Below are positions 35,551-64,000 of a DNA stretch of 64,000 nucleotides, piece after piece. The position numbers and the translations under genes are program-made. The DNA is taken from contig JBMLOQ010000130.1 of NCBI GenBank assembly GCA_049242885.1, positions 5,821-69,820 of the forward strand. The letters are read 5' to 3'. The notes below the pieces were generated by a model. It saw only the letters and a program-made list of their open reading frames with translations, did not search any database and had not been told where the DNA came from. Positions within the stretch are counted from its first letter, which is position 1; every line of letters begins with the position of its first letter. The DNA comes from Chitinophagaceae bacterium. GTDB taxonomy: Bacteria; Bacteroidota; Bacteroidia; Chitinophagales; Chitinophagaceae.

Positions 35551-37437
35551 TTATTCTTTAACTAATTTATGTACAACCCCATTTGATGTTTTTAATACAT
35601 AAATTCCTGGAGAAAAGTGGCTAATGTTTAAACTAAAATTAGATTGGGTTACTTTGTTTTGTTGCATAATGCTTCCCTTTACGTCGCTAATGGTATAGTT
35701 TTCGCCAACAGCTAACCCTTTAATGGTAATTAACGATTTTGTTGGATTAGGATAAACTTCTACTCCCCCACTTGCATTACTAAAAGATAGTTGCCTCACT
35801 TCGCTATAACTTTTACTTCCATCTTTATCAATACTTTGCAATTGATAGTAATATTTATTTTGGTTAGTAGTGGATGGCAATTCATCGTAATAAGTGTAGC
35901 TATTAATTGTGTTATTTTTTGCAGCAATTTTTGCAATGGTAGAAAAATCTCTTCCGTTTGTACTTCTTGTTAAATTAAAGTAAGCAACATTAACTTCGTT
36001 TGCAGTTACCCATTTATTTTCAACTGTTTTACTGCTATTTAATGCTATGTTATAATGTGTGAAGTTTAAAGGAAGTGGTGGGTTTGCTTGGTACACTCTT
36101 ACATAATCAATTTCCATTGCCGATTGTGCAAAACCACTCGTTACTCTAGGTTCAATAGCTACATTCAAAAGCAAAAATTGCTCAGCATCAAACGGCCAAG
36201 TATATTGGTTTTTTACCGCAGGACTATAGCTAAAATGATTAATACCATCTACACTAAACGTAATTCGTTGAGCATCCCAATCAACAGTATATACATGAAA
36301 CTCACTTGAAACAGTTGTTTTAGTTTGTGCATTGGTTACATATTGCCCAGCATTTAAATTCCCATTTACAGGAAAATGTATAGCACTTGAAACTACATTT
36401 TGATTACTGCCCCAATGTTCCATAATATCAATTTCACCACAAGCTGGCCAATTTGTAGTGCCATGTGTTGGTTGCCAAAATGCTCCAGGCTCGTTAATAT
36501 TTTTTCCAAGCATCCATATAGCAGGCCATGTACCAGCTCCAGTTGGTAATTTAGCACGAACTTCTACACGTCCGTATTTAAAAGCAAACTTTGAATTTAA
36601 TCTTGCAGATGTAAATTGCTTTGTATGCCCTTGACTGTTAAGAACTTCTCTTTTGGCTACAATATTAAGTATGCCATTAGAACGAAAAGAATTAGTTAAA
36701 CTATTAGTATAATGCTGTAATTCTCCATTATACCAACTACTTCCATTTGGCAGTTGAGTTTGATGAAACCAGTTTAAATTATTTACAGCACCACTGCCAT
36801 CAAATTCGTCTGTCCAAACCAAATTGTTAAATGTTGAGTATGAGCCACTGTACAAAAAGTCGTCAATAAAAGCTAGTACATTAGCATTGTTGTTTTCGCC
36901 ATTTACTTGTAATAAAACTCTACTAAAATCCCATCTATTTATAGGATTGCCTGAATTGATATTATAGTTTACATAAGTGTCTGTAGCAAAATTAAACGTG
37001 ATAGTTTGCCATTGATTTAATAGAATAGGTTTTACTATTTCACATTGAGTTTCCCAAGGTGCAGCTAAAACCCCATTTTGCAATTTTAATGAAATTTGAT
37101 TGGGTTGGCTTCCTGTAATACCACTTGAAGGAACAAATATTTTTAAGGAAAAAACACTACTTGTACTTAAATTAAATGAAGATTTAGAATCAAACCTAAT
37201 ATTGGCAAACTGCCCTCCAACATCGGCATATCGTAAAACCTTTGAAGAAGTATTTATTCCATTAGATTGAGGATTGTTAAAATTAGTATCAATAACACAA
37301 TCATCTCCAATCCATCTAGTTATAGTTTTATTCCCTTCAAAATCGTCTCTTAAAATTAATGATTGTGAAAATAATTTACTAAAGGAAAAAAGAAAACTAA
37401 AAAGTCCGAGGATAGTAATTACTGTATTTTTTTTCAT
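35551..37437 (-). CDS. GH16 endo-beta-1,3-glucanase (laminarinase) with N-terminal CBM-like domain and T9SS C-terminal sorting domain
   Basis: GH16 catalytic motif GEIDIMEH (ExDxxE), WTDEFDG and WPAIWMLG motifs. An N-terminal roughly 190-aa beta-sandwich-like domain. C-terminal VEVYPNPTKSLITIKG...GIYVLKT is a Por sorting domain. Confidence 0.85.
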   Translation of the reverse strand: MKKNTVITILGLFSFLFSFSKLFSQSLILRDDFEGNKTITRWIGDDCVIDTNFNNPQSNGINTSSKVLRYADVGGQFANIRFDSKSSFNLSTSSVFSLKIFVPSSGITGSQPNQISLKLQNGVLAAPWETQCEIVKPILLNQWQTITFNFATDTYVNYNINSGNPINRWDFSRVLLQVNGENNNANVLAFIDDFLYSGSYSTFNNLVWTDEFDGSGAVNNLNWFHQTQLPNGSSWYNGELQHYTNSLTNSFRSNGILNIVAKREVLNSQGHTKQFTSARLNSKFAFKYGRVEVRAKLPTGAGTWPAIWMLGKNINEPGAFWQPTHGTTNWPACGEIDIMEHWGSNQNVVSSAIHFPVNGNLNAGQYVTNAQTKTTVSSEFHVYTVDWDAQRITFSVDGINHFSYSPAVKNQYTWPFDAEQFLLLNVAIEPRVTSGFAQSAMEIDYVRVYQANPPLPLNFTHYNIALNSSKTVENKWVTANEVNVAYFNLTRSTNGRDFSTIAKIAAKNNTINSYTYYDELPSTTNQNKYYYQLQSIDKDGSKSYSEVRQLSFSNASGGVEVYPNPTKSLITIKGLAVGENYTISDVKGSIMQQNKVTQSNFSLNISHFSPGIYVLKTSNGVVHKLVKE

Positions 37438-50418: not shown

Positions 50419-51207
50419 TTACCAACCACTGCTTAAACCCTGCTCCAATGCTTTATTATACTTTTCCAAATTAAACTTATAATAGTTGGGCGACTTATGT
50501 GGTACTCCTTTTTTTGTTTCATCTAGCTTTTCCAAAATATCATACCCTATCATTTTTCGCTGAAAATTTCTTCTGTCCAATTTTACATCTAATAAGGTTT
50601 CATAAAGCTTTTGAAGCTCGGGCATGGTAAATTTTTCTGGTAACAAATTATACCCAATTGGCTGATAATGTAGTTGTAACCGCAAAGAAGCCAAAGCTTT
50701 ATCTAGTATTTTTTTATGATCAAGAATAAAATTTGGAAGATTACTCAAATCACACCACTCATAATTTTCTGTTGTAGCATCTGCAATTTGTTTCACTTCC
50801 AAAAAATCAATTAATGCATAATAGCCAACAGTTACAAACCTTTGAATAAGCCAATGGTTTTCGTGAATTACTAATCCATCATTTAACAAATCTTCTATAT
50901 GAAATTCTTTAGTATATCTTTTTGTATCTCCAAATGTAAAAAACTGCTGCAAAAAAACCTCTGTTAACCCAGTTCTATCCTTTAAAACCCTATAAGCAGC
51001 TGCATCGCAGGGCTCATCTTTACTTACAAACCCACCTGGCAAAGACCACATATCTCTATACCTATGTTTTATCAGTAGCACTTTCAACTCCCCTTCATGA
51101 AAACCAAAAATTACACAGTCTACCGATACAGAAGGCAAAAATGAATTTTCACCCACTTTAACCATGGCGTCTAAACTTTCATTCTTTGGAATTTTTTGTT
51201 CAATCAT
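50419..51207 (-). CDS. NrtR-like Nudix-domain transcriptional regulator (degenerate Nudix box plus C-terminal winged helix)
   Basis: The Nudix-box position reads GGFVSKDEPCDAAAYRVLKDRTGL, so the REUxEE glutamates are replaced by RVLKDR. The C-terminal FTMPELQKLYETLLDVKLDRRNFQRKM is wHTH-like. The track start is TTG, and the ATG at 51207 is preferred. Confidence 0.7.
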   Translation of the reverse strand: MIEQKIPKNESLDAMVKVGENSFLPSVSVDCVIFGFHEGELKVLLIKHRYRDMWSLPGGFVSKDEPCDAAAYRVLKDRTGLTEVFLQQFFTFGDTKRYTKEFHIEDLLNDGLVIHENHWLIQRFVTVGYYALIDFLEVKQIADATTENYEWCDLSNLPNFILDHKKILDKALASLRLQLHYQPIGYNLLPEKFTMPELQKLYETLLDVKLDRRNFQRKMIGYDILEKLDETKKGVPHKSPNYYKFNLEKYNKALEQGLSSGW

Positions 51208-51273
51208 TTGTATTAAAAAAGGCAAAAAAAAAATTTTTTCTTGGAATTGTAAAATTTATTTCTATATATTGCG

Positions 51274-51299
51274 TCACAATGACACAATGAGAATTGTGT
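51274..51299. promoter_or_regulatory. candidate operator: CACAATGA direct repeat plus inverted repeat ACACAAT-N4-ATTGTGT
   Basis: TCACAATGACACAATGAGAATTGTGT seen directly in the divergent region between the Nudix regulator and the first glucan-locus gene. Confidence 0.35.
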
Positions 51300-51460
51300 T
51301 ATCTAACGAAAAAACATTTGGCTTGCAATAATAGTATGTATTACATTAGTATTTAAAATTTACTAAACTCAATCATACATAGCATTCCATTTTGTTATAG
51401 TACTTAGTTAAATGTATTCTTCTAATATTAAAAAACAATTGTTTAATTTAAAATTGCTTT

Positions 51461-54400
51461 ATGAAAAAGTTAAGAAGTGCTTTGGCACTGCTGGTTCTTA
51501 CAACTGGGCTAATGGCTCAAGTTTCAGTAAAAAATGGTAATGATGGCATGAAACTCTCGGTCAATGGCAAAGATTTCTTTGTAAATGGAATGAACTGGGA
51601 TTATTTTCCTATTGGAACTAACTACAATTATAGTTTGTGGAACCAAAGTGACGATCTTGTAAAACGAGCTTTAGACAATGAAATGCCACTTCTTAAAAAT
51701 ATGGGGGTGAACACCATAAGACAATATACAGGCGTACCTGCTAAATGGATAAAGTATATTTATGAAAATTATGGCATTTACACCATGCTTAACCACTCTT
51801 TTGGTCGTTATGGTTTAAACGTAAAAGGCAAATGGGAACCTAATACAGATTATGCTAACCCTAATGTTAGAGAATTGCTTTTAAAAGAAACAAAAGATAT
51901 GGTAAACCAATACAAAAACACTCCAGGTTTACTATTATTTCTTTTAGGAAACGAAAATAACTATGGTTTATTTTGGCGTGGTGCTGAAACCGAAAATATT
52001 CCTGTACAAGACAGAAAATCTACTAAAGATGCTGAATTTATGTACAAGCTTTTTAACGAAGCTGCTAAAGAAATGAAAGTTTTAGATCCTAATCATCCTA
52101 TGGCAATATGCAATGGAGATTTATTGTTTCTTGAAATTATTGCTAAGGAATGTAAAGACATTGATATTCTTGGTATTAACGCATATAGAGGAATGACTTT
52201 TACTGACATGTATGACAGAGCAAAAAAAGAATTTCCTAAACCAATAATTCTTACAGAGTTTGGTAGCGATGCTTATAATACACAAGCTAATAAAGAAGAT
52301 CAAGAATACCAAGCTAAAGTTTTAGTAAGCAATTGGAAAGATATTTATGCAAATGCTGCTGGAATGGGTAAAAACAACAATAGCCTTGGTGGATTTACAT
52401 TTCAATTTAGTGATGGATGGTGGAAAACTGGACAAACTGTAAATTTAGACGACCATGATGCTACTGCATCTTGGGCAAATGGTGGTTACACTAATGATTT
52501 TGTAAAAGGCGAAAACAATATGAACGAAGAGTGGTTTGGAATTTGTGCTAAAGGAAAAACCAATGAAAACGGCATTTACGATTTATATCCTCGTGCTGCT
52601 TACTATGTTTTAAAACAAGTTCATCAATTCAATCCATTTTCAGTTGCCAAAGCCAATTTAAATTTTATTGATAATATTCAAATTACCGAAGCAATGCTTT
52701 TGGCTCGTGGCGATAAAGCAGCCTTACAAGCAGAAAGCAAAGGCAACTTATACCTTAGTGATTTACAAGCAAATTTTTACACATTCAACACTGGAGGAAG
52801 TTTAATTACTACACCAAAATCTACTGAAGCTGCTTTGGCAAATGGTTATCCAAACAGACAAGGTTTTGACCACATGCAATCATTTAACCTTGGAATTACT
52901 GCAAAACCTGCTCCAAACGTATCAGCAAATGTTCAATTTAACTTATTGGGCAATGTAGCAGAAAATGCTATTGATGAAGTGTTTTACGAAAATAGAGGAA
53001 GACGTTTTGCAGTGAGTACACCAACAGGGCCTGTATTAATGAATTCAAATAATAGAGTTCAATTGTATAGAGCAAGTTATAGCTGGGATGCAAAAGATTT
53101 TAAACTAACTGGTTTTTACAGAACTGGACATTATCATTGGGCTTATGAAGGAGATATGTTTAACCTTTACCAAGAAGCAAATTATGGCCCAAACATAGAT
53201 ATATACAATGGTGAAGCTCCATTTGGATTTGAGTTAGAAGGTAAAAAGAAATTGAAAGGATTGAAGGTTGCTTTTGGCCCAGAACTTTGGTGGGGAGCCA
53301 ACCCTGCTATATTAGCTAAATACAATTTTAAATTAGCTAAGTTTGATGCTACAGCAATTTTTCATGAAGATTTAGTGCAACGTAGTGGTTTACAAAGTTC
53401 GTTTGCTGTGCCTGTACCAAAAACACGAAAAGCTACTTTTGCTTTAGCAAGAAAATTTGAAAAATTTGGTATTGAAATTGGTGGTATTTGGGGAGGACAG
53501 CCTTTAAATGGTAGGGTTTTTCAACTCGAAAGAGATGGAAAATACTATCAAGATGTAATAAAAAGTACCGACAATTTTGGAGGAAAAGTTAAACTTACTT
53601 ATTCAAGTGGTGCTATTCAATGGTATGGATTATCCTCTTACATGGGCTTAGTAGCAAATGGAGGATTCGATCAAACTCAAACCTTTACTGGATGGCGTTT
53701 AAAAGATGTTGGAAGTGGAAATATGTTTAATGTATTAAGTGGTTTTACATATAGTATTGGAAAATTACAAATTGCTCCAAACTTCATGTATCAAAAACCT
53801 CTAGAAGGGCCACTTTCTGCAAGTGCACAAGCACCAGCAAGACCAAGAAATATTTTAGATGATCCTTTTTCTGTTCGTTCAAATAGAGAAACAGTTGGTG
53901 GAGAATTATTATTAACTTACGATCCTACACCAGCAACTTGGATGTATCAATGGGATAATGACAGAGCAGAAGATGCAAAATTTGCAATAAGTGCTGGCTT
54001 TGTTTTCAGACATTTACCAACAGTTCAAGATGCTGCAATTGGTATCCTAGCCAATAGAAATTTATTTGCTTTCCCTGGCTCTGCTCCTGCTCAAGATTTG
54101 TGGGAAGTAAATACAAGAATTGTATCAAAATTAAACCCCAACTTTGGAATAATTGCCAATTTATATGCTGGTAATGGACAAGCAAATGGTAGCGATGCTA
54201 GAACAATTAATCGCTTTGGTGCAGATGTTAGAACCATTTACAAAAAAATGAAATTCATGGCAATTGCCAAGTTCAACGATTGGGGACCATTTGACTATCA
54301 TAGAGATTTTAACTTAACCTTTCCTTTGCAATTAACTGCTGATATTTCTACAGAAGTTGGCAAGCCAGATTGGTTTGTTTTACCAAGTACAAAAATTGGT

Positions 54401-54565
54401 TTAAGAGCAACATATAGAACGCTTGATAAATATTCTCCACGTTACGCTCCAATTAAAGTTTTAGACCCAGCAGGCAATTGGGTTCCAGATCCAAATGCAA
54501 TAGGTTTTCCAAATGGTAATGAGTGGGAATTTAGAACATACATTCAATTCAATCTAGGCAGATAA
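51461..54565 (+). CDS. secreted fusion protein: clan GH-A (GH2/GH5-like) TIM-barrel glycosidase-like domain plus a roughly 600-aa predicted outer-membrane beta-barrel
   Basis: Signal peptide. GVNTIRQY, LLFLLGNENNY (acid/base-like NE) and PIILTEFGSDAY (nucleophile-like E) lie in the first 400 aa or so. From about residue 430 there are 20 or more amphipathic alternating strands (VSANVQFNLLGNV, FKLTGFYRTG, LKVAFGPELWWG, FGIEIGGIWGG, KVKLTYSSG, FAISAGFVFRH, FGIIANLYAGNG, KIGLRATYRT, EWEFRTYIQFNLGR) with aromatic girdle residues. Confidence 0.6.
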   Translation: MKKLRSALALLVLTTGLMAQVSVKNGNDGMKLSVNGKDFFVNGMNWDYFPIGTNYNYSLWNQSDDLVKRALDNEMPLLKNMGVNTIRQYTGVPAKWIKYIYENYGIYTMLNHSFGRYGLNVKGKWEPNTDYANPNVRELLLKETKDMVNQYKNTPGLLLFLLGNENNYGLFWRGAETENIPVQDRKSTKDAEFMYKLFNEAAKEMKVLDPNHPMAICNGDLLFLEIIAKECKDIDILGINAYRGMTFTDMYDRAKKEFPKPIILTEFGSDAYNTQANKEDQEYQAKVLVSNWKDIYANAAGMGKNNNSLGGFTFQFSDGWWKTGQTVNLDDHDATASWANGGYTNDFVKGENNMNEEWFGICAKGKTNENGIYDLYPRAAYYVLKQVHQFNPFSVAKANLNFIDNIQITEAMLLARGDKAALQAESKGNLYLSDLQANFYTFNTGGSLITTPKSTEAALANGYPNRQGFDHMQSFNLGITAKPAPNVSANVQFNLLGNVAENAIDEVFYENRGRRFAVSTPTGPVLMNSNNRVQLYRASYSWDAKDFKLTGFYRTGHYHWAYEGDMFNLYQEANYGPNIDIYNGEAPFGFELEGKKKLKGLKVAFGPELWWGANPAILAKYNFKLAKFDATAIFHEDLVQRSGLQSSFAVPVPKTRKATFALARKFEKFGIEIGGIWGGQPLNGRVFQLERDGKYYQDVIKSTDNFGGKVKLTYSSGAIQWYGLSSYMGLVANGGFDQTQTFTGWRLKDVGSGNMFNVLSGFTYSIGKLQIAPNFMYQKPLEGPLSASAQAPARPRNILDDPFSVRSNRETVGGELLLTYDPTPATWMYQWDNDRAEDAKFAISAGFVFRHLPTVQDAAIGILANRNLFAFPGSAPAQDLWEVNTRIVSKLNPNFGIIANLYAGNGQANGSDARTINRFGADVRTIYKKMKFMAIAKFNDWGPFDYHRDFNLTFPLQLTADISTEVGKPDWFVLPSTKIGLRATYRTLDKYSPRYAPIKVLDPAGNWVPDPNAIGFPNGNEWEFRTYIQFNLGR

Positions 54566-54585
54566 AACAAATTAAAAAAAATTAT

Positions 54586-55989
54586 ATGAAAAATAATAAA
54601 ACAATTCAAACCATATTATTCAATCTTTTAGGATTAATAATTTTAACTGGTGTTGCTTGCAAAAAAAGAGATGTTACAGGCTTAGAAGCACCAAAGTTTC
54701 CAAAAACAGCAGATGTGTTTATCGACGATTTTACTGGCGATTTAGGTTATGGTGCCTTTGGCGGTTCGGATGTAAGAGCTTTTAGCATAGAAACAAGAGA
54801 AACTTATAATAATTCTCGTCAATCCATGCGATTTGATGTACCAGATGCAAATAGCCCACTTGGCTCATACGCAGGTGGAGTTTTTATAAGCAATTCTGGA
54901 AGAGATTTAAGTGGTTTTAATGCTTTAACTTTCTACATCAAAGCTAATCAAGCAATTACAGTGGGAGAAATTGGTTTTGGCAACGATTTTGGAGCAAACA
55001 GATATGTAGTATCCATAAAAGATTTACCAGTAGCAACAGGTTGGAAAAAAATTATCATTCCAATTCCAGATCCTTCAAAATTAACAGCAGAAAAAGGATT
55101 AATGTATTATGCAGCTGCACCAATAGGCAATAGAGGCTATACATTTTGGATTGACGAAGTAAAGTTTGAAAAACTAGGAACTATAGGTTTAGGCCAAGCA
55201 TCAATTAATAATGGAAATAATACTTCTATTACAACATTTGCAGGTGTAAATACTACAATCACTGGTGTAATTGCTACATTTAATTTACCAACAGGTGTAA
55301 ATCAAGTAGTTAACTTAAGCACAGCTTATTTTGATTTTAAATCTTCAAATACAGCAGTAGCCTCTGTAAATGCAAATGGAGTAGCAACAGCCTTAAGTGC
55401 TGGAACATCTACAATTACAGCAACAATAAGTGGTAAGCCTGCTACAGGAAGTTTAACCATTAATTGTGCAGGTAGATATATAAATGCACCTACACCAACA
55501 AGACCACAATCTAATGTAATTTCAATTTTCTCAGATGCTTATACCAATGTACCAGTTAATTATTACAATGGTTATTGGGCTCCATGGCAAACTACTATTT
55601 CCAATGATTTTACTGTAAATGGAGATAATGTTTTAAATTATAACGTGTTCAACTTTGTTGGAATGGAATTTACTGCACCAACTGTGAATGCAACCAATAT
55701 GACCCATTTTCACCTTGATGCCTTTTTCCCAGGTACAATTGCTCCAGGAAGACAATTAAGGATTATTCTTGTTGATTTTGGTGCAGATCGTTCTTTTGGT
55801 GGTGGAGATGATACAAGACATTCAACCACATTTACTGCACCAACCTTAGTATCACAAAGTTGGGTGCAACTAGACATTCCTTTTTCTGCAATGCCAGGTT
55901 TAGTAAGCAGAAACAATATAGCTCAAATAATTTTAGAAGGTGGCGACAACTCAACGCTTTATGTTGACAATGTTTATTTCTGGCGTTAA
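54586..55989 (+). CDS. surface lipoprotein with CBM-like beta-sandwich, Big_2 Ig-like and C-terminal CBM-like domains (candidate glycan-binding protein)
   Basis: Lipobox LTGVAC. The Big_2-like segment is NTAVASVNANGVATALSAGTSTITATISG. The flanking domains have beta-sandwich sequence character, and the C-terminal one ends ILEGGDNSTLYVDNVYFWR, like the CBM-like domain of the GH16 at 35551-37437. Confidence 0.55.
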   Translation: MKNNKTIQTILFNLLGLIILTGVACKKRDVTGLEAPKFPKTADVFIDDFTGDLGYGAFGGSDVRAFSIETRETYNNSRQSMRFDVPDANSPLGSYAGGVFISNSGRDLSGFNALTFYIKANQAITVGEIGFGNDFGANRYVVSIKDLPVATGWKKIIIPIPDPSKLTAEKGLMYYAAAPIGNRGYTFWIDEVKFEKLGTIGLGQASINNGNNTSITTFAGVNTTITGVIATFNLPTGVNQVVNLSTAYFDFKSSNTAVASVNANGVATALSAGTSTITATISGKPATGSLTINCAGRYINAPTPTRPQSNVISIFSDAYTNVPVNYYNGYWAPWQTTISNDFTVNGDNVLNYNVFNFVGMEFTAPTVNATNMTHFHLDAFFPGTIAPGRQLRIILVDFGADRSFGGGDDTRHSTTFTAPTLVSQSWVQLDIPFSAMPGLVSRNNIAQIILEGGDNSTLYVDNVYFWR

Positions 55990-56039
55990 TAAAATAGATT
56001 TAAACAAATAAATAGCTTAAATAAATTAAAAAATTAAAA

Positions 56040-56876
56040 ATGAACTTTCAAATAATTAAAACAAAAAAAATAAACAAGGCAAACACATTTGCCTACCTAG
56101 CTTTAATAGTTTTGCTAAGTAGTTGCCAAAAAGATGGTATTCAAAATTTACCAAAAAGGTCTTGGGAGCTTACTTGGAGTGATGATTTTAATGGCACTGC
56201 AGGCTCGGCACCAGATAATTCTAAATGGAATTTTGACCTTGGTACTGGTACAAATGGTTGGGGAAACAGTGAGTTACAAACTTACACCAACCAGCCTTCT
56301 AATATTCAGCAAGACGGTAATGGAAGACTATTAATTACTGCTAGAAGTGGCGGTTTTACTAGTGCAAGAATTAATACAAAAGGGAAATTTGCACAAGCTT
56401 ATGGTAGATTTGAAGCTAGAATAAAAACTACTCATGGCCCTGGTATTTGGCCAGCATTTTGGATGATGGGAGCTAACATAGATTCTAAACCTTGGCCTCA
56501 ATGTGGTGAAATTGATATTTTGGAACAAAAGGGTCAAGAGCCTCATATCACTTATAGCACTATACATGGCCCTGGATATGCAGGTGGTAGTTCTATTGCA
56601 AAAATGTTTTCATTAGAGAATGATAGATTCGATAACGATTTTCATATCTATGCTGTAGAATGGGGAACAGATTTTATTGATTTTTATGTAGATGATTTTT
56701 TGTTCCATCGCATTACTCCTGAAACACTTAAAGGAAAAGAGTGGGTATTTAATCAACCATTTTTCATCCTTTTAAATGTTGCTATTGGTGGTAACTATGT
56801 TGGCTTTCCTACAGCTGGCACACCATTTCCACAAAGTATGATGGTTGATTATGTAAAAGTATATAAGCAACGTTAA
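56040..56876 (+). CDS. GH16 endo-beta-1,3-glucanase (laminarinase), lipoprotein
   Basis: Lipobox LLSSC. WSDDFNG, WPAFWMMG and the catalytic motif GEIDILEQ (ExDxxE). Confidence 0.9.
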   Translation: MNFQIIKTKKINKANTFAYLALIVLLSSCQKDGIQNLPKRSWELTWSDDFNGTAGSAPDNSKWNFDLGTGTNGWGNSELQTYTNQPSNIQQDGNGRLLITARSGGFTSARINTKGKFAQAYGRFEARIKTTHGPGIWPAFWMMGANIDSKPWPQCGEIDILEQKGQEPHITYSTIHGPGYAGGSSIAKMFSLENDRFDNDFHIYAVEWGTDFIDFYVDDFLFHRITPETLKGKEWVFNQPFFILLNVAIGGNYVGFPTAGTPFPQSMMVDYVKVYKQR

Positions 56877-56978
56877 TTTATAACAAAAATCAATTCTTAA
56901 AATTCTTCATAAAGCTTTAAAAGATAACTAAATAACTTTTAAAGCTTTGTTTCTTAATAGTCTGTAAAAAAAACCTCA

Positions 56979-59900
56979 ATGAATTCTGCAAGTACTGTAA
57001 ATAAGCCTTTAGAATCGGTAGTAATTAATGATGAAATATTTTATAAAATAGAAAATGTAGATGCTTTGCGTCCATTTTTTATGAGCATTGTAAGCGATAG
57101 TAATCATTGGCTTTTTGTAGCTAGTAATGGTGGTTTAAGTGCTGGAAGAAAAAATGCACAGTTTGCACTATTTCCTTACTATACAGATGATAAAATTACA
57201 GAAAGTGCCGAAAATACAGGTAGCAAAACAATTGTTAAAGTACATCAAAACAATTCTACTGTTTTGTGGCAACCTTTTTCGGTTAAAGACGAAGGAAAAT
57301 TCAATAAAACCAATAATTTGTATCAAAGCAAATGGGGTAATAAAATTATTTTCGAAGAAATAAATCATGATTTACAAATAAGTTTTTCATACGAATGGAG
57401 TAACAGTAACGAATTTGGATTTGTAAAAAAATCTACCCTTACAAATTTATCTAATAACAAAGTTGAAGTTAGCTTTATAGATGGCTTACAAAACATTATG
57501 CCATATGGTGTTCCATCGGATGTACAAAATAGCACCAGTAATTTAGTTGATGCCTATAAAAGAAGTGAACTTTTGCCAGAATGTGGAATTGGTATTTATG
57601 CACTAAGTGCCATAATTGTAGATAAAGCAGAACCAGCCGAAGCCCTAAAAGCTAATATTGTTTGGAGTTTTGGCTTAGATAATGTAACCTACTTATTATC
57701 TTCATTTCAATTAAAAAACTTTATAAAAAATGTAGCAATAACCCAAGAAGAAGATGTAAAAGGTGAAAAGGGTGCTTACTTTATTACTAGTAATATTTCT
57801 TTAGAAGCAAATGCTAACAAAAGCTGGTATTTTGTTGCTAATGTAAACCAAACACAAAGCAATGTTATTGCATTAAATGAGTTTTTAAAAACCGAGAAAA
57901 AATTAGCTGAAAAAATTAAAAGCAGCATTGATTTAGGAACCCAAAATTTGCAACAGCTAACTGCCGCTGCTGATAGTTTGCAATTTACAGCAGATACTTT
58001 AAAAGATACAAGGCACTATAATAATGTTTTGTTCAACATAATGCGAGGTGGCATTTTCGACAACAACTATCAAATTGAAAAATGGGACTTTGAATTGTAC
58101 ATTCAAAAAGCAAACAAACAACTTTTTGAAAGTTTAAGTGCAACCCTTAATTCTTTACCAAATGAATGTAGCATTTTTCAGTTAAAAGCAATTGCTGAGC
58201 AAAGCAACAACAATGATTTTATAAGGTTAGCCACAGAATACTTACCACTAAAATTTAGTAGAAGACATGGAGACCCAAGTCGCCCTTGGAATCAATTTTC
58301 AATCAACACTCGTAGCGAAGTTGATGGCTCTAAAATTTTAGATTATCAAGGTAACTGGAGAGATATTTTTCAAAACTGGGAAGCTTTAGCACATGCATAT
58401 CCAGCGTTTATAGAAGGCATGATTACAAAGTTTTTAAATGCCTCTACATTTGATGGATATAATCCTTATCGTGTAACTAAAGATGGTTTTGATTGGGAAA
58501 CAATAGAACCAGATAATCCTTGGAGTTATATTGGCTATTGGGGTGATCATCAAATAATTTATTTACTTAAATTTTTAGAATTTGCAGAGCAACATCAAGC
58601 AGGATTTTTAAGTTCTAAATTATTGAACAATCATTTTGTGTACGCCAACGTGCCTTACAAAATTAAATCGTATGATGCCATTGTAGCTAATCCAAAAGAT
58701 ACCATTGAATACGACCATGCTAACGAAAAAAATATTCATTATAGAATTGCTACATTAGGTGCTGATGGAGCATTGTTAGCTACAAAAAATGGTGAAATTT
58801 ATAAAGTAAATTTCATAGAAAAAATATTAGCAACCACTCTTGCAAAACTTTCAAACTTTGTACCAGAAGCTGGGATTTGGATGAATACACAACGCCCAGA
58901 ATGGAATGACGCCAATAATGCTTTAGTAGGCAATGGTGTATCAATGGTAACGTTATATTATTTAAGAAGATTTTTAAACTTTTTAATTGAATCATTAGAC
59001 AATAACTCCATTCATAATATTGAAATTTCAAATGAAATTCATAGTTTTTATACTGCTATTGCAGAAACTTTGAAACATCATGAGACATTACTTTCGACTT
59101 CAATTTCCAACAAAAAAAGAAAAGAAATAGTTGATGCTTTAGGCAATGCTGCAAGTAGCTTCAGAAATAATGTTTATGACAATTCTTTCAGTGGCTCAAA
59201 ATCTATAATTTCAACTTGTGAGCTGATTAACTTCTTTAAAACTGCTTTGCAATTTATTGATCATTCTATTAAAGCAAATAAACGAAACGACAATCTTTAT
59301 CACGCCTACAATTTACTCAATTTTGAAAATGATGGTTTAAGTATTTCTTACTTAAGCGAAATGTTAGAAGGGCAAGTTGCTGTATTAAGTGCTGGTATTT
59401 TAACAGCTGAGGAAAGTATAAAAGTTTTAGATGCTTTAAAAGCTAGTTCATTGTATCGAGCTGATCAGAATAGCTATATACTTTACCCAAACAAACAACT
59501 ACCTAGATTTTTAGTAAAAAATAACATCACATCATCAGCAATACAAACTTCTAGTTTGCTTCAACAACTTTTACAAGATGGCAACACTTCAATTATTGAA
59601 AAAGACATACTTGGTGGATTTCATTTTAATGGCAATTTTAAAAATGCCGATGATGTTGCAACGGCATTAAACAATTTAAACGAAGTTTATAGCAACCTTG
59701 TATCTCAAGATAAAGACCTGGTTTTAGATATTTTTGAAACGGTATTTAACCATAAAGAATTTACAGGTCGTTCTGGAACTTTCTTTGCTTTTGAAGGGTT
59801 AGGATCCATTTATTGGCACATGGTAAGCAAGTTGGCTGTTGCTGTGCAAGAAACTTGTTTAAGAGCAATAAGTTCAGGTGCTTCAAATGATTTAATTAAT

Positions 59901-60413
59901 AAACTAGTAGCACATTATTATGCTGTTAGCGATGGCATTGGTGTTCATAAATCACCAAGTGTTTATGGTGCTTTCCCAATTACGCCATACTCTCATACAC
60001 CATTGCATAAAGGAGCTCAACAACCAGGAATGACAGGGCAAGTAAAAGAAGATATTCTTACACGCCTGGGTGAATTGGGAGCTAACATAAAACAAGGAAA
60101 GCTACATTTTGAACCAACCATTTTGCTAAAGAAAGAATTGTTGCAGGATTCCCTTAACGCAAATTTTGCTTTGGTAGATGGAAGTTCAAAAACCATTTTG
60201 ATACCAAAAGATGCTTTAGCTTTTACCATTTGTCAAGTTCCAATAATATATAAAATTTCAACTTTAGTAAAAATTGAAATTGAATTCGCAATTGGCGTAA
60301 TTGAAACTTTAAACGGCAATTGCTTATCAGAAATTTTAACTCAAAAAGTAGTTAATAGAACAGGTGAAATTAATCGAATCACAGTTTATTTAAATGAAGG
60401 TTGCTTTAAATAA
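56979..60413 (+). CDS. large cytoplasmic GH94-clan-like glycoside phosphorylase, GH149-like (candidate beta-1,3-glucan phosphorylase)
   Basis: No signal peptide, 1144 aa. GNWRDIFQNWEAL resembles the RDxxQ motif. RPEWNDANNALVG resembles the catalytic DWND-type motif. FEGLGSIYWHM resembles the GSxxW phosphate-site motif of GH94-type phosphorylases. Size and neighbours (GH16/GH17/GH30/GPH) fit what is reported for bacterial GH149. Confidence 0.55.
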   Translation: MNSASTVNKPLESVVINDEIFYKIENVDALRPFFMSIVSDSNHWLFVASNGGLSAGRKNAQFALFPYYTDDKITESAENTGSKTIVKVHQNNSTVLWQPFSVKDEGKFNKTNNLYQSKWGNKIIFEEINHDLQISFSYEWSNSNEFGFVKKSTLTNLSNNKVEVSFIDGLQNIMPYGVPSDVQNSTSNLVDAYKRSELLPECGIGIYALSAIIVDKAEPAEALKANIVWSFGLDNVTYLLSSFQLKNFIKNVAITQEEDVKGEKGAYFITSNISLEANANKSWYFVANVNQTQSNVIALNEFLKTEKKLAEKIKSSIDLGTQNLQQLTAAADSLQFTADTLKDTRHYNNVLFNIMRGGIFDNNYQIEKWDFELYIQKANKQLFESLSATLNSLPNECSIFQLKAIAEQSNNNDFIRLATEYLPLKFSRRHGDPSRPWNQFSINTRSEVDGSKILDYQGNWRDIFQNWEALAHAYPAFIEGMITKFLNASTFDGYNPYRVTKDGFDWETIEPDNPWSYIGYWGDHQIIYLLKFLEFAEQHQAGFLSSKLLNNHFVYANVPYKIKSYDAIVANPKDTIEYDHANEKNIHYRIATLGADGALLATKNGEIYKVNFIEKILATTLAKLSNFVPEAGIWMNTQRPEWNDANNALVGNGVSMVTLYYLRRFLNFLIESLDNNSIHNIEISNEIHSFYTAIAETLKHHETLLSTSISNKKRKEIVDALGNAASSFRNNVYDNSFSGSKSIISTCELINFFKTALQFIDHSIKANKRNDNLYHAYNLLNFENDGLSISYLSEMLEGQVAVLSAGILTAEESIKVLDALKASSLYRADQNSYILYPNKQLPRFLVKNNITSSAIQTSSLLQQLLQDGNTSIIEKDILGGFHFNGNFKNADDVATALNNLNEVYSNLVSQDKDLVLDIFETVFNHKEFTGRSGTFFAFEGLGSIYWHMVSKLAVAVQETCLRAISSGASNDLINKLVAHYYAVSDGIGVHKSPSVYGAFPITPYSHTPLHKGAQQPGMTGQVKEDILTRLGELGANIKQGKLHFEPTILLKKELLQDSLNANFALVDGSSKTILIPKDALAFTICQVPIIYKISTLVKIEIEFAIGVIETLNGNCLSEILTQKVVNRTGEINRITVYLNEGCFK

Positions 60414-61663
60414 TGCTCAAAAAAATCTCTATCATATTCACAGCAACTGTTGCTTTTTTAAACACTGGTTTTGCTCAACAAAAAAATGCAAACCCAACAG
60501 CAGCTACTATTTTAGGTAATCCAAAATATAAAGCTATTTGCTATGGAGGTTATAGACAGTGTAATAGAGATAGTGCCCCTACAATTGCTCAAATAAAAGA
60601 AGATCTTAAAATTTTAACTGCTTTAAACTATAAAATATTAAGAACCTATAATGTACATAAACAAGAAATTTCTAATATACTTGAAGCTATAACACAACTA
60701 AAAAAAGAGCGAAAGCAATTTGAAATGTATGTTATGCTTGGTGCTTGGATTGATTGTAAAAATGCTTGGACCAACTTACCTCCTATTCATAACGAAGAAA
60801 GTGAACGTAATGCTGTTGAAGTAGCTGAAGCTGTGAGATTAGCCAATAAATATCCTTCAATAGTTAAAATAATTTCTGTAGGCAATGAAGCAATGGTAAA
60901 CTGGGCTACGAGCTATTATGTAACCACAAATATCATTTTAAAATGGGTTAATCATCTTCAAAATCTTAAGAAAACCAACCAACTAAATAAAGATATTTGG
61001 ATTACAAGTTCTGACAATTTTGCTTCTTGGGGTGGTGGAGATTCTAGTTATCATTCAAACGACTTAAAAGCATTAATAAATGCAGTAGATTATGTGTCTA
61101 TACACACCTACCCTATGCACGATACCCATTATAATCCAACGTTTTGGGGTACTAAAGCCAACGAAAAAAACCTATCCCAAAAAGAACAAGTTAAAGCTAT
61201 AATGCTTAGAGCAAGGGACTATGCTATTAATCAATATAACAGTGTTGTACACTATATAAAAGCTAATGGTATTAAAAAAGCTGTGCACATTGGTGAAACT
61301 GGTTGGGCTACTCAATGCAATGAGCTTTATGGCAATAATGGATCAAAAGCAATTGACGAATATAAAGCTGCTATTTATCATCAACTAATTAGCGATTGGG
61401 CAACTAAACAAAAAATAAGTTGCTTTTACTTCGAAGCATTTGATGAATGTTGGAAAAACGGAAGTAATCCTATGCACTCTGAAAATCATTTTGGTTTCAT
61501 TAACCTTAATGGTCAAGCAAAATATGCACTTTGGAAATTAGTTGACAAAGGCGTTTTTAAATCACTTACTAGAGATGGCAAAAATATTACTAAAACTTAT
61601 GATGGAAATGAAGCTTTGCTAATGAAAGAAGTGCAATTACCCACATCAATTTTAAAAAATTAA
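60413..61663 (+). CDS. GH17 family beta-1,3-glucanase / glucanosyltransferase, secreted
   Basis: Signal peptide. ISVGNEAMVNW (acid/base) and HIGETGWATQ (nucleophile), as in GH17. The start overlaps the upstream stop (TAATG). Confidence 0.8.
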   Translation: MLKKISIIFTATVAFLNTGFAQQKNANPTAATILGNPKYKAICYGGYRQCNRDSAPTIAQIKEDLKILTALNYKILRTYNVHKQEISNILEAITQLKKERKQFEMYVMLGAWIDCKNAWTNLPPIHNEESERNAVEVAEAVRLANKYPSIVKIISVGNEAMVNWATSYYVTTNIILKWVNHLQNLKKTNQLNKDIWITSSDNFASWGGGDSSYHSNDLKALINAVDYVSIHTYPMHDTHYNPTFWGTKANEKNLSQKEQVKAIMLRARDYAINQYNSVVHYIKANGIKKAVHIGETGWATQCNELYGNNGSKAIDEYKAAIYHQLISDWATKQKISCFYFEAFDECWKNGSNPMHSENHFGFINLNGQAKYALWKLVDKGVFKSLTRDGKNITKTYDGNEALLMKEVQLPTSILKN

Positions 61664-61674
61664 AAAGTATCAAC

Positions 61675-63174
61675 ATGAAAAAACTTATAAAAAGTGCAAA
61701 ACTGTTGATGATTACATTAAGTATGATTGCTGTTTTAAATGAAAATAGTTCAGCCCAAAAATTAATAGTAGAAATTTATGAAACTGCTGCGAATGGAAAT
61801 TCTTTAAAAAAAATTGCTCCTATTTCAAAGGCTATTAATCCTATAAAAATTTCTATTAATCCAGAAGAAAAATTTCAAAAAATTACTGGTTTTGGGGGTT
61901 CTTTTACACAATCAACAGCCTATTTACTAAACAAGCTTAGTGCTGCCAATCGAAAAAAAATTATTGATGGTTATTTCAGCGAAGCTGGAGCAAACTACTC
62001 CCTCACCAGAACACATATAAACTCTTGTGATTTTAGTACGCATCAATATGCTTATAACACTACTCCCAATGATACAGCTTTAAATCAGTTTGATATTAGT
62101 GAAGATGAAAAGGGTATTATACCTATGATTAAGGCTGCAAAAAAAACCAGCAAAGATGGCTTTAAAATAATTGCTTCGCCTTGGACTGCACCACCTTGGA
62201 TGAAAGACAACAACCTTTGGGTGGGCGGAAAATTGCTACCAAAATATTACGATACTTGGGCATTATATTTTAGCAAATACTTTAAGGCATATAAAAAACA
62301 CAACATCAATTTTTGGGGCATTACTGTAGAAAACGAACCTCATGGAAATGGCAATAATTGGGAAAGTATGTTGTATAGTCCAAAAGAAATGACAGATTTT
62401 GTAGAGTTTCATCTTGGACCTAAGCTAGAAAAAGATGGATATGGTAAAATAAAAATTTTAGGTTACGATCAAAACCGTGCTGGCATACAAGAATGGGTAG
62501 ATGAAATGTATCGTTCTCCCAACTCAACCAAATATTATGCAGGTTTAGCAGTTCATTGGTACGAAAGCACCTATGATTATTTTGGTGATGCTTTACAATA
62601 TGCACACAAAAAAAATCCATCGAAACATTTAATAAATACTGAGGCTTGCATTGATAGTGATGTGCCAGCTTGGAAAAATGATAGTTGGTATTGGAGCAAA
62701 GAAGCAACAGATTGGGGCTGGGATTGGGCAAGTGAAAAAGAAAAACATTTGCACCCCAAATATGCCCCAGTATTTAGATATGCTACAGATATTATTGGCT
62801 GTTTAAATAATTATGTAGATGGTTGGGTAGATTGGAATATGGTTTTAAACAAACAAGGTGGCCCAAATTGGTTTAAAAACTGGTGTGCTGCTCCTGTGTT
62901 GGTAGATGAAGATAAAGACGAAGTGTATTTTACCCCTTTGTATTACACTATGGCTCACTTTAGTAAATTTATAAGACCAGGAGCTACTAGAATTGGCTTT
63001 ACAAATCCTGATAAAGACTTGATGGTTACTGCTGCAAAAAATGTTGATGGAAGTATTGCAGTAGTTGTATTTAATCAAACAGAAGAAACAAAAAACATTT
63101 CACTAACGATTAATAAAAAACTTGTTGACTTAAAAATTTCAGCAAAAGCTATTCAAACCATTTTTATAAAATAA
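61675..63174 (+). CDS. GH30 family glycosidase (beta-1,6-glucanase / glucosylceramidase-like), secreted
   Basis: GFGGSFTQS, SPWTAPPWMK, ITVENEP (acid/base) and INTEAC (nucleophile). Signal peptide present. Confidence 0.85.
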   Translation: MKKLIKSAKLLMITLSMIAVLNENSSAQKLIVEIYETAANGNSLKKIAPISKAINPIKISINPEEKFQKITGFGGSFTQSTAYLLNKLSAANRKKIIDGYFSEAGANYSLTRTHINSCDFSTHQYAYNTTPNDTALNQFDISEDEKGIIPMIKAAKKTSKDGFKIIASPWTAPPWMKDNNLWVGGKLLPKYYDTWALYFSKYFKAYKKHNINFWGITVENEPHGNGNNWESMLYSPKEMTDFVEFHLGPKLEKDGYGKIKILGYDQNRAGIQEWVDEMYRSPNSTKYYAGLAVHWYESTYDYFGDALQYAHKKNPSKHLINTEACIDSDVPAWKNDSWYWSKEATDWGWDWASEKEKHLHPKYAPVFRYATDIIGCLNNYVDGWVDWNMVLNKQGGPNWFKNWCAAPVLVDEDKDEVYFTPLYYTMAHFSKFIRPGATRIGFTNPDKDLMVTAAKNVDGSIAVVVFNQTEETKNISLTINKKLVDLKISAKAIQTIFIK

Positions 63175-63205
63175 TTAAATCTAACGAAAAAACAACTAAC
63201 GCCTT

Positions 63206-64000
63206 ATGTCAAATTCAGTACAAACAAATAAAGTACCTATGGTTAAAAAGGTAGCTTTTGGTGTAGGTATGCTTGCAAACCAAATGTTTCCTGCTGCCCT
63301 TGGAGTATTTATGGTTGTATTAGTAAACGGTTTTGGATTTCCTGTTTGGATGGTTGCTATTTTAACCTTTGCTCCAAGACTTTTAGATTTTGTAATTGAT
63401 CCAATCATGGGTTTTATTACTGATAATACACGCTCTCGTTGGGGCAAAAGAAGACATTATGTTTTTATTGGTGCTATAATATTAGGCATTAGTTTTTTAT
63501 TCATGTGGCAAATACATAAAGACAATGGAATAACATTTAATTTTTTCTATTTTCTGTTTTTTAAACTTTGCTTATACATTGGGCTTACTATTTTTAGTAT
63601 TCCTTTTGTAGCCATGGGTTATGAAATGAGCGAAGATTTTCACGAGCGTACACAAATTATGGCTATTGCACAATGGATTGGTCAATGGGCTTGGGTAATT
63701 GTTCCTTGGTTTTGGATAATTATTTACGACCCAACTTGGTTTCCTTCTCCTGAAGCAGGGGCAAGGTCATTATCAGTTTGGGTAGCAATAATTTGCATGC
63801 TTTTTGCTATGGTTCCTGCCTTTTTTATAAAGTCGGCATCTACCTTAAACGAAACAAGTTTTAAATCCATAAGCTTAAGAAATATTGGAGGTATTTTTAA
63901 AAATTTAATTCACGAATTTAAAGAGGCATTTAAATTACAAGACTTTAGAAGATTGTGCTATGCAACCTTTTTTACCTTCAATGCTTTTAACACAGTTGCA
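63206..64000 (+). CDS. GPH-family (glycoside-pentoside-hexuronide:cation symporter) MFS transporter, 5' partial (continues past the window end)
   Basis: Hand translation from the ATG at 63206 stays open to the window end. The GPH signature is IDPIMGFITDNTRSRWGKRRHY, and multiple TM helices are present. The antisense ORF at 63196-63447 is rejected. Confidence 0.85.
   Translation, partial: MSNSVQTNKVPMVKKVAFGVGMLANQMFPAALGVFMVVLVNGFGFPVWMVAILTFAPRLLDFVIDPIMGFITDNTRSRWGKRRHYVFIGAIILGISFLFMWQIHKDNGITFNFFYFLFFKLCLYIGLTIFSIPFVAMGYEMSEDFHERTQIMAIAQWIGQWAWVIVPWFWIIIYDPTWFPSPEAGARSLSVWVAIICMLFAMVPAFFIKSASTLNETSFKSISLRNIGGIFKNLIHEFKEAFKLQDFRRLCYATFFTFNAFNTVA

Follow-up and report, generated by a model that had tools for sequence, protein, structure and literature searches.

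What does the 1144-residue protein encoded at positions 56979-60413 (plus strand, ATG start) of a DNA stretch from a Chitinophagaceae bacterium do, and what should be made of the single nucleotide (nt) that its gene shares with the next one? The stretch, called here the window, comprises 64,000 nt of contig JBMLOQ010000130.1 (assembly GCA_049242885.1, positions 5,821 to 69,820 of the forward strand). A preliminary description, made from the letters alone, had proposed a GH149 phosphorylase of the GH94 clan (GH-Q) that is stoichiometrically coupled to a secreted GH17 enzyme encoded immediately downstream. The analysis reported here indicates that the open reading frame (ORF) very probably codes for a cytoplasmic GH149 β-1,3-glucan (laminaridextrin) phosphorylase, which would carry out the last enzymatic step of a locus for the utilization of laminarin, a β-1,3/1,6-glucan.

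Family membership and active site

Two comparisons carry the assignment to GH149. The NCBIfam equivalog model NF058639.1 (1,3-beta-D-glucan phosphorylase, GH149), whose cut-off is 1150 bits, matches the protein over profile positions 7-1133 of 1134 with a score of 1720.7 bits, and none of 14 control genomes contains a match to it. Among the chains of the Protein Data Bank (PDB), 6HQ6 (Pro_7066) is matched by HMMER without interruption, residues 11-1140 aligning to 41-1171 with 1522 bits. The PDB chains that follow give fragmentary matches; they include the GH161 chain 9QQK, with 64.9 bits spread over three short stretches, and a chain named cellobiose phosphorylase, with 62 bits. Both the family and the clan first proposed for the protein are therefore upheld, and no non-phosphorylase family ranks above the GH149 equivalog in the hidden Markov model (HMM) search.

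The related families of phosphorylases were considered as alternatives. GH94, which groups cellobiose and laminaribiose phosphorylases, and GH161 share with GH149 the catalytic apparatus of clan GH-Q and the inverting mechanism of phosphorolysis (PMC5827456, PMC6771811). The Pfam scan of the 1144-residue protein retrieved neither a GH149 nor a GH94 model at E<0.01, only a spurious, sub-threshold BRCT match of 16.9 bits; membership in GH94 was ruled out by the lack of a match to a GH94 family model in Pfam. Membership in GH161 was ruled out by the contrast between the three fragments obtained with 9QQK and the score reached with the GH149 structure.

Pro_7066 is a biochemically characterized bacterial GH149 β-1,3-oligosaccharide phosphorylase with known structures (PDB 6HQ6/6HQ8; PMC5827456, PMC6771811), and only two characterized enzymes of this family have been reported (PMC5827456). 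For the mapping of residues, a constant offset of 19 residues, due to a tag, was applied between the numbering of Pro_7066 and that of the PDB chain. In this way, the catalytic loop W651-N652-D653 of Pro_7066, which includes the general acid D653, corresponds to W642-N643-D644 in the protein studied here, and the residues of the sugar-phosphate and phosphate site, R470/D471, E951 and H959, correspond to R461/D462, E939 and H947. At the active site, both proteins thus share the WND, RD, Glu and His residues, and neither of them carries a signal peptide. According to the sequence alignment, the whole architecture of Pro_7066 is matched with only small differences in length: the N-terminal β-sandwich, the linker, the (α/α)6 catalytic domain with its two GH149-specific insertions, Dom1 (370-428) and Dom2 (852-938), and the C-terminal jelly roll.

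The conservation of these positions was assessed across the family. A scan of species-representative genomes revealed at least 594 stretches encoding a relative of this GH149, a number at odds with the earlier statement that the family is present in a few Bacteroidota. The best 80 of these at least 594 stretches were kept, and their GH149 relatives are 55-66% identical to the present protein. Among the matches listed, the nearest species-representative genome encodes a protein with 66% identity, and a congener reaches 78%. In an alignment of 80 sequences, consisting of this protein and 79 relatives translated from the retrieved loci, 245 of the 1144 positions are invariant; R461, D462, W642, N643, D644, E939 and H947 are all found among them (80/80). 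The catalytic Asp and the phosphate-site residues, which the preliminary description had singled out for an alignment with the characterized enzyme, are consequently present and strictly kept. Judged from its sequence, the protein is a member of GH149, an orthologue of the characterized family that leaves the understanding of the family as it was; this copy is a sequence-divergent member from a small genome of low G+C content. In one of the retrieved loci, from a metagenome-assembled genome (MAG) of Bacteroidota (L066, 8001-11435), the GH149 match contains one in-frame stop, which may point to a pseudogene or to an error in sequencing.

The reading frame far exceeds what could be expected by chance, since it is open for 1144 codons at 31.5% G+C and its HMM match has an E-value of 0. 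The gene is present as a single copy in the genome. The N-terminus of the protein (MNSASTVNKPLESVVINDEIFYK...) has no hydrophobic stretch and, because the total open frame around the gene measures only 1150 codons, no upstream extension can add a signal peptide. The length of the ORF and the lack of a signal peptide had been described correctly, as had three motifs, NWRDIFQNWEAL, PEWNDANNAL and GLGSIYWHM, which begin at residues 459, 640 and 940, respectively.

A different picture emerges from the surface oligosaccharide-binding site of Pro_7066, in which K831, E838, Y841, E982, E990, Y993, E994 and R1062 are involved in the binding of laminarihexaose (PMC5827456, PMC6771811). Only two of these eight residues are kept, as K821 (equivalent to K831) and Y981 (equivalent to Y993). 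The other six are replaced (E838A, Y841N, E982N, E990A, E994A and R1062L in the numbering of Pro_7066), the corresponding positions in this protein being A828, N831, N970, A978, A982 and L1050. In the 80-sequence alignment, Y841 is kept in 58 sequences, Y993 in 64, E994 in 72 and R1062 in 50. To judge by these substitutions, the enzyme belongs to a minority of GH149 proteins that lack a surface site of the Pro_7066 type. The absence of this site had already been noted for the GH149 of Flavobacterium aquatile (PMC5827456, PMC6771811), and the site is to be regarded as a feature of a subgroup rather than as a defining feature of the family. The enzyme could be used as a natural variant for probing the role of the GH149 surface site.

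The laminarin locus and the role of GH149

Laminarin is among the most abundant marine glycans. The GH149 gene stands in a cluster in which the genes follow the order GH158-like barrel fusion, lipoprotein, GH16, GH149, GH17, GH30 and a fusion between a transporter from the major facilitator superfamily (MFS) and a GH17 domain (MFS::GH17). This order is shared by dozens of the 80 loci, among them loci of Flavobacteriaceae, Saprospiraceae, Chitinophagales, Cyclobacteriaceae, a Balneola MAG and Formosa sp. Hel1_33_131. GH149 genes of Bacteroidota have been described in polysaccharide utilization loci (PULs) or clusters of carbohydrate-active enzymes together with GH16, GH17, GH30 and GH3 (PMC5827456). 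The Formosa locus is induced by laminarin, and the activities of its FbGH30, its FbGH17A and its MFS-fused FbGH17B have been demonstrated (PMC6246565); a laminarin locus of matching arrangement has also been described in Muricauda (preprint, bioRxiv 10.64898/2026.01.22.701063). Thus, this type of locus is widespread and already known.

The resemblance to the laminarin PUL 2 of Formosa sp. Hel1_33_131 and to the laminarin PUL of Muricauda lutaonensis extends along the whole series of genes, from the 1034-residue "GH2-like" gene through the lipoprotein, GH16, GH149, GH17 and GH30 to the MFS-GH17 fusion; the transporter-glycosidase fusion of FbGH17B has its counterpart in the MFS::GH17 protein. 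The cluster nevertheless differs from these PULs in its regulator, which is a divergently transcribed Nudix protein of the NrtR type instead of one of the LuxR/BguR type, and in its GH17, which carries a type-I signal peptide instead of the lipoprotein signal found in most relatives. A full cluster of the Bacteroidota type, in which the 1034-residue protein is 71% identical to the one studied here, was also found in a MAG labelled as uncultured Burkholderiales (L076, CAZUIT010000018.1), which reflects either an error of binning or labelling or a transfer.

Among 40 relatives searched, eight carry GH149, including three of 14 members of the same genus, and the locus can therefore be considered an accessory trait.

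The composition of the cluster suggests the following route. At the cell surface or outer membrane, laminarin would be bound and cut by the GH158-like barrel fusion, the lipoprotein with a carbohydrate-binding module (CBM) and the GH16 lipoprotein. The resulting fragments would be trimmed in the periplasm by GH17, acting as an endo-β-1,3-glucanase, and by GH30, which would remove β-1,6 branches, and the laminari-oligosaccharides would be imported by the MFS::GH17 fusion. Once in the cytoplasm, they would be attacked by GH149, which in the presence of inorganic phosphate would release α-glucose-1-phosphate from the non-reducing end; D644 would act as general acid and R461/D462, E939 and H947 would hold the sugar phosphate. 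Finally, a phosphoglucomutase (PGM) would feed the product into glycolysis, with a saving of one ATP per glucose in comparison with hydrolysis. The genome contains two genes of the PGM/phosphomannomutase (PMM) family, whose products could convert glucose-1-phosphate. Seen in this way, GH149 would represent an energy-saving cytoplasmic final step of laminarin breakdown in many Bacteroidota.

Some points weigh against this assignment. Phosphorylases are reversible, and a synthetic role is compatible with the sequence. With only two of the eight surface-site residues kept, the behavior of the enzyme with respect to chain length may differ from that of Pro_7066. Furthermore, no promoter was found for the part of the cluster headed by GH149: a sigma-70 scan of positions 51000-64000, which is not informative for Bacteroidota, gave 51 promoters where shuffled sequences predict 57.5 (and seven terminators where they predict 7.4), and a search for the Bacteroidota -7 box TAnnTTTG did not find it on the plus strand of either the spacer between GH16 and GH149 or the leader at 51226-51460.

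A mainly synthetic GH149, which would build intracellular β-1,3-gluco-oligosaccharides from glucose-1-phosphate for storage or priming, can draw on the reversibility of the family in vitro, the products of Pro_7066 being detectable up to a degree of polymerization of 11 (PMC5827456), and the Muricauda preprint speculates on an intracellular handling of β-1,3-glucan (bioRxiv 10.64898/2026.01.22.701063). It is, however, extremely improbable: the neighboring genes code for secreted, degradative glucanases and for an importer, the Formosa locus of this type responds to laminarin (PMC6246565), and the patchy distribution of the gene among congeners fits an accessory catabolic trait. It is very improbable as well that an enzyme with the GH149 fold acts here on another substrate, for instance oligosaccharides with branches or mixed linkages, or a different sugar 1-phosphate. 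The scarcity of characterized members and the divergent surface site speak in favor of this possibility, but the -1 subsite and the catalytic residues are all invariant, the NF058639 score is well over the equivalog cut-off, and β-1,3/1,6-glucan is the predicted target of every neighboring enzyme. The phosphorolysis of imported laminari-oligosaccharides is thus the function to which most of the evidence points.

The GH149-GH17 junction and the upstream hairpin

Positions 60410-60415 read A-TAA-TG, in which the TAA at 60411-60413 is the stop codon of GH149 and the ATG at 60413-60415 is the start codon of GH17. The TAATG at 60411-60415 (plus strand), which had been pointed out before, is therefore an overlap of 1 nt, and it has the form by which coupled pairs are formally recognized (1 or 4 nt shared on one strand). 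What had been concluded from it is not supported. An overlap of this kind permits termination-reinitiation but does not set a 1:1 ratio between the two products, as the claim of stoichiometric coupling implied. The pairing of a cytoplasmic with a periplasmic enzyme had also been considered unusual; in most groups of prokaryotes, about 15% of gene pairs are co-directional and overlap (PMC6728339), and a tight junction at this place recurs in many relatives. In Bacteroidetes, no Shine-Dalgarno motif is used for reinitiation (PMC6728339).

In 59 relatives in which both genes adjoin, the stop codon of GH149 and the start codon of GH17 were located. Overlaps of 1 or 4 nt are present in 14 of them; the gap between the genes has a median of 8.5 nt and does not exceed 15 nt in 42. 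At the five other types of junction in the cluster, overlaps were found in 0/40, 1/40, 0/29, 2/45 and 1/53 cases, and in 0/11 for GH17-MFS, which gives 4/218 in total; the difference from the GH149-GH17 junction has a Fisher p of 1.6e-7, a value not corrected for kinship. When the state of the junction is placed on a FastTree phylogeny of the GH149 proteins, at least nine changes are required, seven of which are forced by well-supported branches. For instance, the congener with 78% identity also has a 1-nt overlap but with other codons (TAGTG, in which GTG is the start), a spacer of 4 nt is present in two further congeners, and one relative of the same family has TAATG. In a Formosa MAG (L016), the two genes are separated by 15 nt, in contrast to the 1-nt overlap observed here. 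GH149-GH17 is thus the tightest junction of the cluster, and overlap has arisen at it repeatedly. This recurrence is a small new point and amounts to a modest statistical tendency.

A second element to be considered lies in front of the GH149 gene. The spacer between GH16 and GH149, which measures 102 nt here and a median of about 100 nt in relatives, contains an A/U-rich hairpin with a stem of 15 bp at 56909-56950 (plus strand). Its predicted RNA fold has an energy of -15.3 kcal/mol (z -3.46), and none of 200 shuffled sequences folds as well. Hairpins composed of a stem and a T-run are found at the matching site in L003, L010, L020, L032, L033, L036, L045, L053, L055, L080 and L088, and the congener locus L085 has a related hairpin in which both arms are changed. 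The structure is a possible terminator, attenuator or transcript-end structure. Its position points to a second unit (GH149-GH17-GH30-MFS::GH17) that begins with GH149, or to an attenuation of read-through from the upstream genes at the hairpin.

With these data, the 1-nt overlap may be seen as a sign of operon compaction which could allow termination-reinitiation and which by itself sets no stoichiometry. A more demanding proposal holds that the overlap was selected as a device, in which termination-reinitiation at TAATG or ATGA would make the production of the periplasmic GH17 follow that of the cytoplasmic GH149 in a fixed proportion. The excess of overlaps over the remaining junctions, the repeated changes on the tree, and the persistence of a 1-nt overlap in the congener despite its different codons, together with the TAATG of the relative from the same family, would agree with it. 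So would the scarcity of stop/start overlaps in this genome of 2.6 Mb and 31.7% G+C, in which a crude count, limited to ATG starts and to pairs whose upstream ORF has 150 residues or more and whose downstream ORF has 100 or more, found 36 of them behind 1797 long ORFs, a rough base rate. However, overlap is absent from 45 of the 59 relatives, in line with the median gap, and from the two congeners with a spacer. Moreover, GH149 genes often end in a Lys codon followed by the stop (AAA TAA or AAA TGA); since AAATGA automatically yields an ATG and provides the A-rich context favored by Bacteroidota starts, the overlaps may be a by-product. In addition, overlapping pairs are reported to code frequently for subunits of heteromeric complexes (PMC10666635), whereas GH149 and GH17 are predicted to act in different compartments, which would rule out a shared complex. 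A selected device is accordingly rather unlikely. We are equally doubtful about its extended form, in which the repeatedly evolved overlap would set the ratio and the hairpin would part a unit for the inner compartments from the genes for surface proteins. Compaction of the operon is the preferred explanation, and the junction, as the sole site of recurrent overlaps in the cluster, would offer a handy natural case for the study of reinitiation without Shine-Dalgarno motifs in Bacteroidota.

Neighboring genes

The regulatory gene lies at 50419-51225 on the minus strand and codes for a protein of the NrtR family with Nudix and winged-helix domains (Pfam NrtR_WHD, 81.3 bits; NUDIX, 36.8 bits). 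A homologue with 63% identity occupies the equal position in locus L008.

The first gene of the cluster (51461-54565, plus strand, as are all the genes up to MFS::GH17) encodes the 1034-residue protein with a glycosidase domain of clan A that appears to be GH158-like. Residues 68-287 match the Pfam GH2 TIM-barrel model with 29.3 bits, the match to the GH158 structure 9ORO in the PDB is weak (26.3 bits), and the C-terminal region of about 600 residues is covered by no model. It is followed by the gene for a lipoprotein of 467 residues (54586-55989) with CBM-like and Big_2 modules, as indicated by Pfam matches to Big_2 (23.5 bits) and, under the cut-off, to CBM_11 (23.9 bits). Both genes occur together in about 40 of the 80 GH149 loci. 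No SusC/SusD pair was found within the cluster in this window. The third gene (56040-56876) codes for a GH16 lipoprotein, a candidate laminarinase, with 89.3 bits for Pfam Glyco_hydro_16 and a visible lipobox, LLSSC.

Downstream of GH149, the gene at 60413-61663 codes for the GH17 protein of 416 residues, a predicted periplasmic or secreted endo-β-1,3-glucanase. No Pfam GH17 match was obtained for it, and it aligns over its full length (residues 17-411 to 26-421, 534 bits, E 1.5e-159) with PDB chain 6FCG, deposited as "Glycoside hydrolase, GH17 family", which we take to be FbGH17A of Formosa. Its N-terminus, MLKKISIIFTATVAFLNTGFA|QQ, has the appearance of a type-I signal peptide when judged by eye, in agreement with the signal peptide previously ascribed to this GH17. 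The ATG is the first start codon past the upstream in-frame stop, and the following Met is reached only after about 100 residues; no alternative start would therefore yield a signal peptide. Signals of type I are also present in L012 and in the congener locus L085, while most relatives have a lipoprotein signal with a Cys lipobox; the anchoring of GH17 therefore differs between lineages.

The next gene (61675-63174) encodes a GH30 protein with a signal peptide, a putative laminarin-debranching β-1,6-glucosidase, which matches Pfam Glyco_hydro_30 (255.8 bits) and GH30C; its score with the NCBIfam endo-1,6-beta-glucanase model, 243.8 bits, is under the cut-off of that model. The last gene (63206-64000 in the window, continuing to 65542 in the contig) encodes a sugar transporter of the MFS (GPH family) with a C-terminal GH17 domain, 778 residues in total (Pfam MFS_2, 200.9 bits; Glyco_hydro_17, 36.9 bits). 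Residues 535-760 match the GH17 β-1,3-glucanosyltransferase 4WTP of the PDB with 104.5 bits. If the transporter has 12 helices, this domain would face the cytoplasm, beside GH149.

A second GH16 protein, of 628 residues and with a C-terminal sorting domain of the type IX secretion system, is encoded 14 kb upstream of the cluster (35551-37437, minus strand), the S10-spc ribosomal genes standing between both. It may be a secreted laminarinase of the laminarin pathway.

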